A DNA stretch of 63,946 bases, filler included, from Rhizaria sp. SCN 62-66 (lineage: Eukaryota), in assembly GCA_001724265.1 (NCBI GenBank). It is 4 parts of 4 records of this genome, joined end to end, with 100 filler letters (N's around TTAATTAATTAA, not from the genome) between each part and the next. Parts side by side here need not be neighbours in the genome. Positions count along the whole stretch, not along the records: positions 1 to 17,112 come from MEDY01000485.1; positions 17,213 to 37,856 come from MEDY01000486.1; positions 37,957 to 55,868 come from MEDY01000491.1; positions 55,969 to 63,946 come from MEDY01000595.1. One strand, given 5' to 3'. This document shows positions 2,014 through 60,200 of this stretch, in pieces. Both the position numbers and the translations under genes were made by a program. The notes below the pieces were generated by a model, which worked only from the letters and a program-made list of their open reading frames with translations, had not been told where the DNA came from and did no database searches. Numbering within the stretch: position 1 is the first letter of the stretch; every line of letters starts with the position of its first letter.

Positions 2014-5000
2014 ATGCCGATCGGCGAAATCCGTGGCCCTGGTCCTCTGGCCACGTCGGGCATCCGGCGCCCTCTTGTATCCACCCGCCTTGCTATGGCA
2101 ATGGCGCGTTCCTCAACGGGATTCGTCTTCTCGACTCCGTCTCTCACCTCGGCAGCTCCGTCTGCTTCTGCTGTCACTGCCGCCATCGCGACCACAGTCA
2201 CGCCTGCCGTGGCCGCTGCGCTCACCGCGGCCGCGCCCGCTTTTGCTACTGGTGGTTGGTCGGTTCCCTTCCTCGCGCGCCCGCTCTCGGAGCCCCTGCT
2301 GCCCGCCCCGGCCCCGCTGCCGCCGCCGCCCCGCCTCGCCCGTGCCGCCAACACAGCAACAGGCGCTGCCGGCGAAGCTGCGAGTGCCATTGCCAGTGTG
2401 AGCAGTGCAGCGCCGTCACGCGACGTGTTTTCCTAGGTCGCCGTGCCGCTCTCGCTGCTGCGCGCGCTCGGAGTGCCCTCCGGCACCGTCGTCGCCGTCG
2501 CCGCCTGTGCGCCGCCCACACTCAGCTCGCAGACCAACAACTACGCTGACAGTCACTTGGCAAGCGCGAGTGCTGACTCAGCGGGCTGTGTGGCGCCCGC
2601 CCGTCCGCTGCGCGCTGGCAGCTACCTGCTGCCTTGCCCGACCGCCTCCGAGCTAAACAACAGCACGAGCAGCAGTGGTGACAGCGTGAACTCCGGTGAG
2701 AGCAGTTGCGGTGCGAGCGACTGGGAGCAGGACTGCGACTGCGCCACTGCGCTGCCGGTGCGGCTCGTCGCCGTCACTATCCCCGCTCTGCCCGCCAACA
2801 GCAACGGCGCAGCGGCGATTGGGACGACTACGATTGTGTTCCCGGCTCTGTCGCCATCACGCTCGACCCCCCCCGGCTCCAGCGCGCTCATCTCCGACTC
2901 CGCGCTCAGCAGCGCTGCGGACGGTGGCGATGAGGGCGGCCGCGCACTGACGACGCCCGCGCCGTGGCCCCTTGTCATTGCCGCGCCCCACGCCACGCTG
3001 CCCCCGTATCTTACCCAAAGTCAGGCCGCGTCGTCATCAAATCAAGCCACCGTGTCCGCGCAGGCTCTCGGGGGCGGTTTCGCGCCGCTGCTGCCGCTGC
3101 CGCCAGCGTCCGTGAGCTCTGTCTCAAACACCGCGACGGCGACGGTGACCGTGAGCACCACCACTCTGCTGTCGGCGACGGCAACGGCGACGACGACGGG
3201 CGCCACCACCGGCGCCGGCGCGGCGGCCGTCCCCGCGGCCGCCGACGACGCCGCGGCCGCCGCGCTCGGGCGCTACCACCGGCCCCACACCGCTGCGGCC
3301 CACGGTCACTCTGCCACGACGACAGCGAGCTCTGCTGCGAGTGCGAATGCCATTGCGGAGAGCCTGCTGGAGGCGTATCTGCCGCCCTCAGTGCTAGCCG
3401 CGCTCGGCATCGTTCCCGCCGCGCCGCACCCGGTCCACCTCTCCGCCGCGGCCTCGGCCGGCGCGGCCTCTGCCGGCGCGGGCGACGGCGGCCACATCGC
3501 TGAGAGCGCCAACGCGCCCGGCCACGCGCTCAGCGTGTTTGGCAGTCCCCGCAAGGAGTCGAACAGTATCGGCCACAGCAACAGCGGCGTCGACAGTGTC
3601 GTTGGCGTGCCGCGCGGCAGCTACGTGACCTTCCGTCTGTACCCCGAAGGCGCCTACAGCACATGCCTAACGCAGGGCTCACAGTCCCCGCAGTCGCAGT
3701 CTACTCAGCAGGCTCTGTTGCCGTCGCTACCCGTGGCGACGGCGGTCACTCTCGCGCTCGTCGCCGCCCCGGGCCCCGCGGCGTGGCTCGGCGCGCCCTC
3801 CGCCGCAGCCCGTGAGAGCAACCCCTACTTCTCGCCGCTCTCGCTCCCCACTGCCACTGCGAGTACAGCAGCAACCAGCTCGAGCAACAGCGCCAGCGTC
3901 GGTGCCAGTGCGAGTCTGGGTGACCGTGAGCAGCCCGCCGCAGCCGTGATCGATCTCGGTTTGTCCTCGGCCTTCCGTGTCCCGCGGCTTGCGGGCGTCG
4001 GCTCACTGTTCCCTCTGCCGCTCGCCCCCGCGGCCGCGGCGCTGCCGGTGTTCTCGCCCGAGGCCACCGCGGGCCAGGCCGTCTATCTAAAAGCTGCGCT
4101 AAACGCATCGCAGTCGCATTCCTCCAGTGCGAATGCCAGTGCCAGTGCGTTGGCGGCGAGTGGGCGCGCGCTGCCGTTTCCCCGCAGCCTGAGCGCCGAG
4201 TCGGACGCGCTGGCCGAGGCGTGGGAGAGCGGCGCGCGCGCGCTCGCCGCCACCGTCACGCCGGCCATCCTGCCCCGGGGCAATCCCAGCACCACCGCGA
4301 CCGCGACTGGGAGTGCAAATGCAAGCGCAAGCGCCAGGTCGGAGTGGCGGCCCCCGGTGCCCGCGCTGGCGGTTGCTGCGGCGCCCGGCGCCGACGCTGA
4401 GACGATGCTAGTGCCAGCCGCGACTGCGGCGCGCCACGCCGCGGGGCTGTACGCGCTCGCTCTGCCCTGCTCACAGTCACCCCCGGGCGCGCTGTCGGCG
4501 CAGCAGTCGGCGCCGCAGCTGCTGACTGAGAGCCAGGCGGAGGCCGCGTACATGTCCGCGCTGGCGGCTTACATTAACGCCGTCGCCGCCGACGTGTACA
4601 CCACGCTGCCCACGGTCACTGCGCCCACGGTCAGCTCGACCACCACGTCGCCCACGGCCACGACCACGGCCCCTGCTGCTGCAACTGCGGCTGCGACCCT
4701 GAGTCCGCCCCGCTCGACGCACAGCGTGAGTGCGCTCGCGAGCCCGAGTCCGAGCCGCAGCCGCAGCCCCAGTCCCAGCTCCGCGGCCGCCGCCGCCGCC
4801 GCTGCGGCCGCCGCTGTGCCCATGCTCGTGGCGGCACCCGCGTCCGCGCCCGCAGCCGGCGCAGCCGCAGTGCCGCTGGCTTACGTCGTGGTGACGTCGG
4901 TGTCGCCGCCCTCTCTCTGGGGCCGGCCCTTCCTCATCGCGCCCACTCCCAACGCGGGCACCGGCGGCGAGGGCTCCGACAGCAACGCTGTTGTCACGCA

Positions 5001-57277: not shown

Positions 57278-60200
57278 TCACTTCTTCTTGTTGACGTTCT
57301 TGACGAAAGTGTGGATGCTCTGGACCTTGCTGACAACGTCAGGCGGAATGATGAGCAGCAGCGACATGGTCTGCTGCGCGCTGTCGAACGCCTTGCCGAA
57401 GATCGGGTGGTAGATGACGATGTGGAACAGAAAGAGGAAGACGACGAAGCAGATGAGCAAGACTTCGCGGAACATGTTGAAATCGCTCGACTGCCCCTCT
57501 GCCGTGGCCGCGTAGTCATCCTGGCTCATCGACATGATCACCGTGAGGATGTGCGAGATGAGCTCATGGAACGCATTCACGGTCACGAACAGCGTGGTCC
57601 ACGCCGCCGAGCCGGTCGCAAGGGGCGTGAAGTTCTCGTTCAGCCGCGCGGGGTCCACTTCGTTGTAAGGCGGCACCGTGGTGAAGGGGTAGGCGGCGGA
57701 GAGCATACCCGCCGAGTCGAATGTGGCGTACTGCTGCACGTAAACCTGCGCCACGATCGTCGGGTCCAGCAAACCGCGCTCGCTGATGCCACCGAGAGTC
57801 AGCGGGCACTGTACGACGAAGTTGTTGCGCACCGTGGGGCCGATGGCCTGCTCGAGGCGTGCGCGCGAGTTCTCGTTCAAGTTCGCGTAGTACGTGCACG
57901 TGTTGCCGTACAGGATCTTTAGCTGCTAGGGCGAGACTTGGCCGCTGAGACCGAGCTCGCGCGAGCCGTAGACGAGGCCGCGCGCGTACGCCAGCGACTC
58001 GAAGTAGTACTTCTGCGCCAGATCCGTGGCGTAGTTGCCCGGGTTCATCTTGACCTCCTCGAATATCGTCTCCGCCGCGGGGCCCACGCTCGTGCCGTTG
58101 CCGCCGATGGACGGCGCGCGCGGGCCCAGGTTCAGCGTGCGCCCGTCGGGGGAGCGCGCCAACACCAGGTTCTCGAATGGCTGCACCAAGTTAGTCTTCT
58201 TGTTGCGGAGGTTGTTGCTGTCATTCTTGCTGCCGGGGGCCACGGTTGCGCGCACGGAGCCGGGCGCGGTGGCGCCGTCGAGGCGCAGCGGCGCCGTGGC
58301 CGACGAGGGCGTGTGCGCCACAGGCACCCTGCCGTTGAGCGACGACGGCGCCAGCGGTAGGGACGCGGCGTCCACGGCCGAGTCGGTCACGGAGCCATCC
58401 TCGTCCTCACGGCGGCGGCGCATGTTGTTGTACGTCATGCGGTCAGCCGCAGCAGCGGTCGCGGCGGTAGTCGGCTTGCTGGTAGCGGCGACGACGGCGA
58501 TGGCCTGCGCCACGGCTTCACGCGCAGCCACCTCCAAGTCCGTCTCAGGCGCCTCCGCGATGGCGGCGATCTTGGCCAGCGACGCACGGCCCGTGGCCGA
58601 CAGCGACGCCTGCTCCTCCTCGGTGAAGATCGCCATGATGCGGCGCGCGCTCTCGCGGGCAGGCACGTACTCAGGCGCGTCGTTGAGAAGGGACGCAGTC
58701 ACGGCCGCGGTCTTGGCCTCCAGAGACAGGTCGCTCGACTCGATGTCCGCGATGGAAGCAGAGGCAGAGAGGTACGCACCGGCAGTGGCGCTGTTGCTCT
58801 TGCTCTTGCTGAGGTTGGCACTGTTGGACGCAGATGCGAGCGCGGCGGCGAGCTCGGCGTCGGACTCAAAGGGCTCGTACAGCGCCTGCGGCTTGGCGTT
58901 GACACTGTTGCCGCCGACGATAGGCTGCAGGTCGGGCAGGCCGGGCATGATGTTGGGCGTGGGAAGCGGCGTCACGCGCGGGTTGATCAGCGACTCAAGG
59001 GTGAAGAAAATCATCTGCTGCGTCGACACCATGCGGTTGGCCGCGCCGATGAGAGAGGTGCTGACAATTTTGTTTTCGCTGAAGAAGCGGTCGGTGAAAA
59101 TCACGGCGACGATGGTGTAGACGAGGCAGTAGAGGACGAGGAAGGCGTACTTGCCGTAGAGCACGCGCATGGCGTGCGTGTGCATCGAGATAAGCGACGC
59201 CATGCGCGACTGCGAGACGACGATAACGTCCTTGCTTATGCTCGACGAGCCGTCGGTGTCACCGCTTTGGCCAAGCATCTTAAGCGGCGCGCCACCGCCC
59301 TCCGAGTCGCCCGACATGGCCGAGATTGACGAGTCGGCGTCGGACACGTCGTCGGCGTAGTCGGCTGACTTTTCCTTGGTCGTGGAGCCCACGTCCTCGT
59401 CCTCCTCTTCGTCGTCGCCCTGGTTGCGCAGTGCCTGCAGGAAGCGGCGCTGAAGCAGCCGCACGACGGGGCGTGGCAGCGCGAGGAGAAGGCGCAGGAC
59501 GTTAGAGGAGCCCTCCTCGACCTCGGAGACGGTGGGACGCAGCACCGCGAAGATGAAGAAGACGAGCACGAGGAGCGCGATGCCGTAGGTCACGATCTCG
59601 ATGGACCATACCGACTGGTAGACGTTGTCGAGCCCGTCTTTGTAGGCGAGCGCACCGCGCGTGAAGGCGTCGAGCACGGCGTAGGGCCCGTTAACGAGGA
59701 TGAAGAAGGTCGATGAGTCTGACATCTGGTTGATGCTCGCGATGGCCGTGATGCCCACGCGCGCGGCCGCGGCAAGGAACACCTGGCCCACTTCCTTGAG
59801 GTTGTACACGCGTTGAATTGTGACACCGCCGACCAGCGAGTAAAGCTGCACGGACGGCACATAGAAGAAGTCTTGTGCCGACGACGAGAGGCGGCTGTCG
59901 TCGTAAAGCACCGTTTCCATGTAGTCTAGCAGAGACGCGTTGTCGACCAGGTCGGCGCGCGCGAAGGCTTCGTAGGTGGTGCCGTAGACACCAAGCCGGA
60001 TGAGTTCGAGGATACGCGTGTTGCTCGTGATGGTGAAGGCAATGGAGCGGCGGTGGCTCGCCAGACGCAGCAGACGGAAGCCCACCTTGTTGTCGGCCAT
60101 CCCGGACGACGTGACGAGGAACATGGCGAGCCAGCAGCCAAATATGATGACGCATACGGCGAATGCGACCCAGGAGATGCGGTTGAGCTTGCGCTTGAGC

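Follow-up and report, generated by a model that had tools for sequence, protein, structure and literature searches.

The nuclear genetic code is seldom altered, and alterations of UAG that leave UAA alone are rarer still. Codes in which both codons specify Gln (UAR to Gln) are the commoner kind; the excerpts of PMC5304391 and PMC11687900 on which we draw place them in Amoeboaphelidium protococcarum, Hexamita, Streblomastix, ulvophytes, and many ciliates. Reassignment of UAG alone is described in the excerpt of PMC11687900 for the uncultured rhizarian exLh (to Leu), Iotanema spirale (to Gln), Scotinosphaera (to Ser), and Protocruzia tuzeti (to Gln), as well as for phyllopharyngean ciliates, in which UAG has become Leu (TARA metagenome-assembled genomes, MAGs) and, in two lineages, Gln. 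The same excerpt explains that UAG can change alone because a tRNA with the anticodon CUA should not read UAA. The combination of UAG as Gln with UAA and UGA as stops, the pattern of NCBI translation table 15, is also covered in the excerpt of PMC5304391. Here we analyze 63,946 nucleotides (nt) of DNA from Rhizaria sp. SCN 62-66 (GenBank assembly GCA_001724265.1); this whole stretch is hereafter called the window, and ten in-frame TAG codons interrupt its coding frames. We propose that UAG is a sense codon in this organism, most likely Gln, and that UAA and UGA are its sole stops, as in table 15; we assign this reading a probability of about 0.7, and consider it highly probable that UAG is sense, whatever its meaning. 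The same code had been suggested in an original prediction made from the DNA alone, and its central claim, that UAG is a sense codon, is well supported here by homology across the TAG at 57926, by a protein repeat around the TAG at 31519, by the polyglutamine (polyQ) context of the TAG at 21448, and by frame and coding statistics.

What is the evidence that UAG is translated? The strongest case is the TAG at 57926, within a gene that merits the TmcB-like label it had been given, as its product matches Pfam TPR_TmcB (1.2e-20; matches to PAS are weak). The C-terminal 443 residues of this protein, searched with HMMER against 1.84 billion representatives, gave 22 matches, one of which is the organism's own open reading frame (ORF) following the TAG and 21 of which are other proteins. 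Fifteen of these 21 non-self homologues align in a single stretch across the TAG (query residue 228), and their matches stop close to their own C-termini, a few residues away and 60 at the most, at the point where the TmcB-like ORF meets TGA. The TGA at 57278 is where the family normally ends. Past the TAG the alignment retains invariant residues C85, C115, G126, Y213, P249, P269, and P270. Since the homologues align across the TAG, the 215 conserved C-terminal residues must be translated through it. The 215 codons that follow the TAG (57281-57925) contain no TAA or TGA (shuffle P 0.014), and the GC content of third codon positions (GC3), taken over 100 codons on each side, is 0.93 upstream of the TAG and 0.89 downstream. 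Gene calls in the databases break at this codon, with protein P0006 ending there (3 contigs) and P0052 restarting (7 contigs). A word-indexed protein search with the TmcB C-terminus recovered only the organism's own pieces, plus P0053, and a search of metagenome contigs with P0006 gave 593 pattern matches and zero relatives.

Similarly, the TAG at 31519 in the surface-protein gene can be judged against the protein's own repeats. In an alignment of nine repeat units, the sequence on both sides of the TAG matches the eight other units, and the TAG stands two residues past the unit's conserved Cys and ahead of a conserved aromatic residue. Open frames of 1207 and 899 codons, at ~51% GC, are fused by a sense TAG here, and the flanks are coding on both sides. 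The gene reads as two ORFs, one running to a TGA at 34219 and the other, EGF-like and with the transmembrane anchor, from 34031 to 36214, where it ends in TAA; they overlap by ~190 nt, and near 34190-34220 the frame appears to shift by 1 nt, a Cys-rich motif seeming to pass there from frame 0 into frame 1. The two ORFs could represent one gene of ~2,800 residues, divided by an assembly error, by a genuine frameshift, or because the gene is a young pseudogene. At 34194, a GT..AG stretch of 23 nt was rejected as an intron because its length fails to restore the frame. We also note that region 27890-34450 has near-zero cover by contigs of X4, a related strain from a different sample, and of the polyA-RNA run X7, with neighbouring genes covered on both sides; strain X4 may lack the region or carry a variable version of it.

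Homology supports a sense TAG at two sites only, 57926 and 31519, and frame and codon statistics do so at the other sites. Four of these belong to the long gene encoding an Ala/Ser/Gln-rich protein of low complexity, in which open frames of 893, 1555, 134, and 101 codons are fused by sense TAGs at 21448, 26116, and 26521. The first two of these frames flank the TAG at 21448, and the 100-codon flanks of this site are coding on both sides. The 236 codons that follow the TAG at 26116 (26119-26826) contain no TAA or TGA (shuffle P 0.0016), compared with 5-25 in the other five frames; the coding score upstream of 26116 fails in windows of 60 and 120 codons because the site lies behind a CAG-rich tract of low complexity. 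The flank upstream of 18766 is not coding-like.

The same gene allows a comparison between strains, as the contigs of X4 differ from the window at few positions per kilobase. X4 retains the TAGs at 18766, 26116, and 26521, and the differing letters of the three covering records all lie elsewhere. This ORF has two indels in X4, one of 3 nt and one of 12 nt; of the 12 differences between 21448 and 26116, 8 are synonymous, against an expectation of 0.26. Given that X4 keeps the TAGs, that the indels are in frame, and that database calls break at the TAG at 57926, the TAGs are not assembly slips. The X4 differences are unevenly spread: five sit within 164 nt (26387-26550), a hypervariable patch between the TAG at 26116 and the TAA, and the 4.7 kb before that patch contains 12, mostly synonymous. 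PolyA-RNA contigs of run X7 cover the gene on both sides of 21448, and no intron-like GT..AG joint was reported in the X7 contigs on this gene. The RNA/contig joints that were listed were discarded, as their sides were of 20-23 letters only and lay in low-complexity sequence; in run X8, only 2 records matched the window.

The TAG at 2434 fuses open frames of 178 and 1498 codons in the first exon of an AAA ATPase gene. This exon is Ala-rich, spans 1,636 codons, and has no Pfam match; its in-frame ATGs are at 2014, 2095, and 2101, with the next one only at 4405. Across 1900-6699, the frame that contains the TAG fits the coding model best in 19 of 20 80-codon windows, and the open frame upstream of the TAG (2014-2433) is not significant alone (shuffle P 0.31). 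We regard the site as a weak case, as the in-frame 39-nt stretch GTGAGC...TAG at 2398-2436 could be a mini-intron, unlike the other introns observed though it is. Those of the AAA gene (6923-7059, 7500-7629, and 8077-8229) are ~100-150 nt long and AT-rich, start with GTACG, and end with AG; the contrast in GC between such introns and the exons (65-75% GC) is sharp and useful for gene modelling in this organism. The gene has one recognisable AAA domain, split over exons (Pfam AAA, 3.3e-29 and 1.4e-8). It had been called PEX6, a name that is not established, since the AAA exon best matches VCP/Cdc48/AFG2 structures in the PDB (~1e-60) and PEX6 at only 2e-37. Likewise, the 318-codon gene with three TAGs, previously described as cyclophilin-like, has no support for that label: its product has zero Pfam families and zero PDB matches. 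Its frame contains no TAA or TGA over 945 nt, compared with 4-17 in the other five frames.

All ten TAGs named in the original prediction are present in the window (Table 1), on both strands and on all four of its contigs: 2434 on contig 1; 18766, 21448, 26116, 26521, and 31519 on contig 2; 50712, 50883, and 51105 on contig 3; and 57926, which fuses open frames of 2006 and 215 codons, on contig 4. Coding signal continues past each of them, as had been claimed. In a six-frame codon model trained on 12 TAG-free exons, 11 of which passed leave-one-out (the twelfth is the AAA1 exon, 7062-7499), the same frame scores best downstream at 10 of 10 TAGs over 50-120 codons. Upstream flanks are coding-like at 8 of the 10; the exceptions, 18766 and 51105, are at or before probable start codons, may lie 5′ of the true starts, and carry little weight as evidence. 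GC content after the TAG is similar or higher at seven sites and lower by 0.02-0.09 at the other three. No TAG is followed within 50 codons by a further in-frame stop, compared with 14 of 15 TAA/TGA gene ends (Fisher p 3.4e-6). Long spurious ORFs are frequent in GC-rich DNA, so frame length alone was not relied on.

Is TAG the only stop triplet that behaves in this way? That coding frames hold no internal TAA or TGA comparable to the TAGs was also part of the original prediction, and this holds in a non-circular scan of the whole window. All 3285 stop triplets in six frames (1801 TGA, 820 TAA, and 664 TAG) were screened; to pass, a triplet needed coding sequence in its frame over the 100 codons on each side (margin > 0.05) and no further stop within them. 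The scan returned five TAGs (2434, 21448, 26521, 31519, and 57926), zero TAAs, and zero TGAs. The absence of TAA and TGA from 15,224 coding codons was not used as evidence; it is circular, the ORFs being delimited by these two triplets. Three further candidates were set aside: ORF 43966-44589, with two TAGs, is a wrong frame of the introns and exons of the amidohydrolase gene; a TAG in ORF 42268-43167 is located in the ERO1 intron; and a SUMO-interaction-like motif, considered as recurring on either side of the TAGs, proved to be a single instance matched by the regular expression.

Table 1. Genes with in-frame TAG codons, and one reference gene end, in the window. The coordinate of a TAG on the minus strand is the lowest base of the codon.
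Feature	Coordinates	Strand	Remarks
AAA ATPase gene, type II	2014..8574	+	three AT-rich GTACG...AG introns; ends in TAA at 8572
In-frame TAG	2434..2436	+	long first exon of the AAA gene, after 140 codons
Complex III 14 kDa subunit gene end, TAA	11200..11202	+	GC and coding score drop beyond
Long low-complexity gene, Ala/Ser/Gln-rich protein	18760..26829	+	ends in TAA at 26827
In-frame TAG, weak case	18766..18768	+	two codons past ATG, likely gene start; further ATG downstream
In-frame TAG	21448..21450	+	in polyQ run of CAA/CAG, QQQLE-TAG-QQQQQQQQQ
In-frame TAG near C-terminus	26116..26118	+	Q/R-rich stretch, RQREK-TAG-LQRQL
In-frame TAG, C-terminal tail	26521..26523	+	PPVQS-TAG-HRETN; both flanks coding and stop-free
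Surface-protein gene	27988..36214	+	repeats, TSP1-like Cys-rich part, EGF-like part, transmembrane anchor
In-frame TAG	31519..31521	+	inside a ~150-residue repeat unit
Gene with three TAGs, 318 codons	50157..51113	-	ends in TAA at 50157
In-frame TAG	50712..50714	-	PEKH-TAG-SNYRM; flanks coding on both sides
In-frame TAG	50883..50885	-	PRQCE-TAG-NTPIL; flanks coding on both sides
In-frame TAG, weak case	51105..51107	-	two codons past first ATG (ATG TCG TAG); upstream flank non-coding
TmcB-like gene	57278..63946	-	5′ end off contig; ends in TGA at 57278-57280
In-frame TAG	57926..57928	-	residue 2007 of 2222 read; in conserved C-terminal domain

The behaviour of UAA and UGA is the other half of the proposed code. 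The original prediction had counted 15 visible gene ends, all TAA or TGA; none is indeed TAG, but the count is 16 (8 TGA, 8 TAA, 0 TAG), the sixteenth being the AAA gene's TAA, and the contrast tests used 15 (8 TGA, 7 TAA). If TAG made up its ordinary share of 15-25% of stops, zero in 16 would have P 0.01-0.07, and P 0.01-0.03 at a share of 20-25%. GC content drops after all 15 ends tested, to 0.31-0.61, and the downstream coding margin is at most 0.10 at every one. In the complex III 14 kDa subunit gene the UCR_14kD Pfam match reaches profile position 99 of 100, four residues short of the TAA at 11200. The next in-frame TGA is found 14-104 codons past the TAA gene ends. The GC drop, the repeated stops, the end of the UCR_14kD profile, and the coincidence of the TmcB-like end with that of its homologues thus support the view that UAA and UGA still terminate, as had been predicted.

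Where did the change arise? The ERO1 gene of the window (41066-42349) provides a marker. Its relatives are environmental, P0008 at 67% identity and others at 50-62%, and the best named matches, from Riccia, Closterium, Achlya, an ochromonad, and Vermamoeba, do not exceed 41%. In a quick tree, the window sequence and ten environmental sequences (among P0008-P0017) form a clade with a Shimodaira-Hasegawa-like approximate likelihood ratio (SH-aLRT) support of 100; the clade contains no named taxon and is far from the single ciliate sampled. Its first branch is the organism represented by loci L003 and L004 (52% ERO1 identity), whose ERO1 ends ...KKDEL followed by TAG (L003 10001-11200), with two more TAGs shortly after. 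In the 18.3-kb locus of this relative, the scan applied to the window finds no stop that is flanked on each side by 100 open codons. The relative uses TAG as a stop, and therefore the UAG change arose within the ERO1 clade. A metagenome scan with the ERO1 alignment found 8 loci, one of which (L001, 3.75 kb) is from the organism studied here and added no sequence. As a separate matter, the ERO1 proteins of the window and P0008 end in a hydrophobic C-terminal anchor, compared with KDEL in L003/L004, so the clade has two ways of retaining ERO1 in the endoplasmic reticulum.

The original prediction had also raised a possible independent origin of the change. The relative's KDEL-TAG and a host unlike Iotanema and the ciliates speak for it, but independence stays plausible only, as judged from these sequences. 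The fuller scenario, an independent and fairly recent switch of UAG to Gln in the GC-rich nuclear genome of a wastewater/bioreactor lineage outside the ciliates and metamonads, datable within its clade, we hold to be an even bet. UAG is rare, with 10 in ~15,200 codons (0.66 per 1000) or ~2% of CAG, CAA, and TAG together, and this rarity, with the absence of TAG from Pfam-supported exons, fits a fairly recent reassignment.

Several observations weigh against a sense UAG or against its reading as Gln, and they are best considered together with the explanations that they favour. Under the standard code, the TAGs would act as true stops, mark nonsense mutations in genes that are decaying, or lie in untranslated or intronic sequence, with chance open frames behind them, of which GC-rich DNA yields many. 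The positions of 18766 and 51105 with respect to likely starts, and of 2434 at the possible end of a 39-nt GT...AG stretch, suit this view. The surface-protein gene shows an apparent frameshift, and given this frame change the TAG at 31519 could belong to a young pseudogene. Random nonsense mutation under the codon usage of the window would produce TAG ~62% of the time, and the finding of only TAG is weaker evidence than it appears (P 0.025 for 8 of 8 sites). The five X4 differences after the TAG at 26116 include no synonymous change, and among the RNA contigs listed none crosses a TAG, so that RNA support is absent and not contrary. ARAGORN detected no tRNA genes in the window, and the sample is small, ~64 kb and 16 gene ends. 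Against the standard code, however, homologues align across the TAG at 57926, where GC3 is ~0.9 on either side; the coding score and the open frame persist past 10 of 10 TAGs but not past the TAA/TGA ends; and the frame after 26116 and that of the 318-codon gene are open at 52-54% GC, with 4-25 TAA/TGA in the other frames. The X4 comparison indicates purifying selection and in-frame indels, the GTACG introns do not resemble the surroundings of the TAGs, and the relative's locus is devoid of stops flanked by 100 open codons on both sides. We therefore regard the standard code as very unlikely. A code in which UAA and UAG both specify Gln, leaving UGA as the sole stop, is scarcely credible. It is the commonest variant in the excerpts of PMC5304391 and PMC11687900, and a sense UAA would be rare in a GC-rich genome. 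Yet eight genes end in TAA, with a GC drop and a loss of coding score past 7 of 7 tested, and under this code the TAA genes would extend for 14-104 codons through AT-rich sequence containing more TAAs. No TAA lies between coding flanks, and the TAA ends with their GC drop, together with the near-complete UCR_14kD profile, make a UAR-to-Gln code unlikely.

What does UAG specify? The earlier answer, probably Gln, is favoured by the polyQ context, the Q-rich flanks, and the Q of the nearest homologue, but has a single, variable column behind it in the alignments. In this column, aligned with the TAG at 57926, the 15 homologues have Q in three cases, A in three, L in two, and S, I, K, T, R, H, and G once each. 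The nearest TmcB homologue (47% identity) has Q there, in the following column 11 of the 15 have Q, and table 15 translation reads the site as Q. Among the ten residues that flank a site, the mean number of Q is 1.50 for TAGs, 1.28 for Gln residues, and 0.20-0.46 for other residue types. Six or more Q among these ten, as at 21448, are found around 5.3% of Gln residues, 0.73% of Glu, 0.33% of Leu, 0.06% of Ser, and 0.9% of Trp (one residue); apart from Trp, the share does not exceed ~0.7% for any type other than Gln. The Gln codons of the window are 386 CAG and 127 CAA, and TAG is one transition from CAG. We favour Gln as the best reading, a suggestion and not a proof, because the single usable column is variable; in addition, no TAG coincides with a strongly conserved alignment column. 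That UAG is sense with another meaning, such as Leu, Ser, or Glu, is unlikely. The variability of that column allows it, Ser immediately precedes the TAG at 2434, 26521, 31519, and 51105, and nuclear codes with UAG as Leu and as Ser exist in the excerpt of PMC11687900; it is opposed by the polyQ run at 21448, a context far commoner around Gln than around Glu, Leu, or Ser, by the Q of the nearest TmcB homologue, and by the single transition that separates TAG from the commonest Gln codon. Quite unlikely, too, is an ambiguous UAG, one that is not fully reassigned but allows efficient readthrough in certain contexts while certain genes still end at it. The codon is rare and confined to fast-evolving proteins, with zero TAGs, where 2.3 would be expected (P 0.10), in the ~3,540 codons of exons with Pfam support; 16 gene ends are a limited sample; and, with TAG still a stop in the relative, the reassignment may be of recent date and unfinished. 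On the other hand, none of the 16 gene ends is TAG, and without efficient decoding of the TAG at 57926 the TmcB-like protein would lose its conserved 215-residue C-terminus.

The organism itself is an aerobic, intron-bearing, GC-rich eukaryote of wastewater and bioreactor metagenomes; the runs that contain the same DNA are bioreactor, wastewater, and activated-sludge metagenomes. The window consists of four contigs (1-17112, 17213-37856, 37957-55868, and 55969-63946) with N-TTAATTAATTAA-N spacers between them; the linker TTAATTAATTAA at the joints 17113-17212, 37857-37956, and 55869-55968 is artificial, carries stops in six frames, and cuts the ORFs that touch it. The GC content of 2-kb windows ranges from 40 to 77%. 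Pfam identifies eukaryotic genes for an eIF2B-family subunit, the intron-split type II AAA ATPase, a WD40 protein, the complex III 14 kDa subunit, Saf4/Yju2, ERO1, an amidohydrolase, a B-box protein, and the TmcB-like protein with TPR_TmcB and weak PAS. These genes, and AT-rich introns of ~100-150 nt inside GC-rich exons, agree with the earlier description of a GC-rich, intron-containing protist. An Rfam scan of the window gave zero matches.

We propose that in this organism a tRNA with the anticodon CUA would read UAG and not UAA, tRNA-Gln(CUG) being its probable source, that eRF1 may have lost or weakened its recognition of UAG, and that TAG codons would arise from CAG by C-to-T changes at weakly constrained sites. 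If the proposed code is correct, it adds an independent data point, in a GC-rich, aerobic, non-ciliate protist, on the uncoupling of UAG from UAA, on the route through tRNA(CUA), and on the part played by GC content. Moreover, as sense UAG is scarce and the relative uses UAG as a stop, reassignment may be caught at an early stage in this clade. In practical terms, gene callers that assume the standard code split genes at TAG, as they did the TmcB-like gene (into P0006 and P0052), and the eukaryotic bins of wastewater metagenomes need code-aware annotation.

Finally, how does this organism compare with those in which stop codons are already known to be read as amino acids? The pattern as such is known, being that of table 15, and the host looks different from all reported UAG-only lineages; the literature that we searched, which did not include subscription journals and supplementary files, contained no report of UAG reassignment in a GC-rich wastewater protist. 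As in Iotanema spirale, Protocruzia tuzeti, and the phyllopharyngeans with table 15, UAG alone is sense, UAA and UGA are stops, and Gln is the likely meaning. Unlike the table 15 hosts, this organism combines 45-77% GC with multi-gene contigs of up to 20.6 kb and with AT-rich introns of 100-150 nt that start with GTACG, and, unlike Iotanema, an anaerobic fornicate, it encodes a subunit of complex III. The meaning of UAG here rests on far fewer sites than in the published table 15 cases. Like exLh, the phyllopharyngean TARA MAGs, and Scotinosphaera, it is a nuclear case of UAG uncoupled from UAA, and, as in some of these cases, it was found in an uncultured organism by means of sequence data; unlike exLh and the TARA MAGs (Leu) and Scotinosphaera (Ser), the contexts of its TAGs point to Gln without settling the matter. 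With the UAR-to-Gln codes of Amoeboaphelidium, Hexamita, Streblomastix, ulvophytes, and ciliates it would share a stop codon read as Gln, and it departs from them in that TAA ends 8 of its 16 genes and never occurs between coding flanks.

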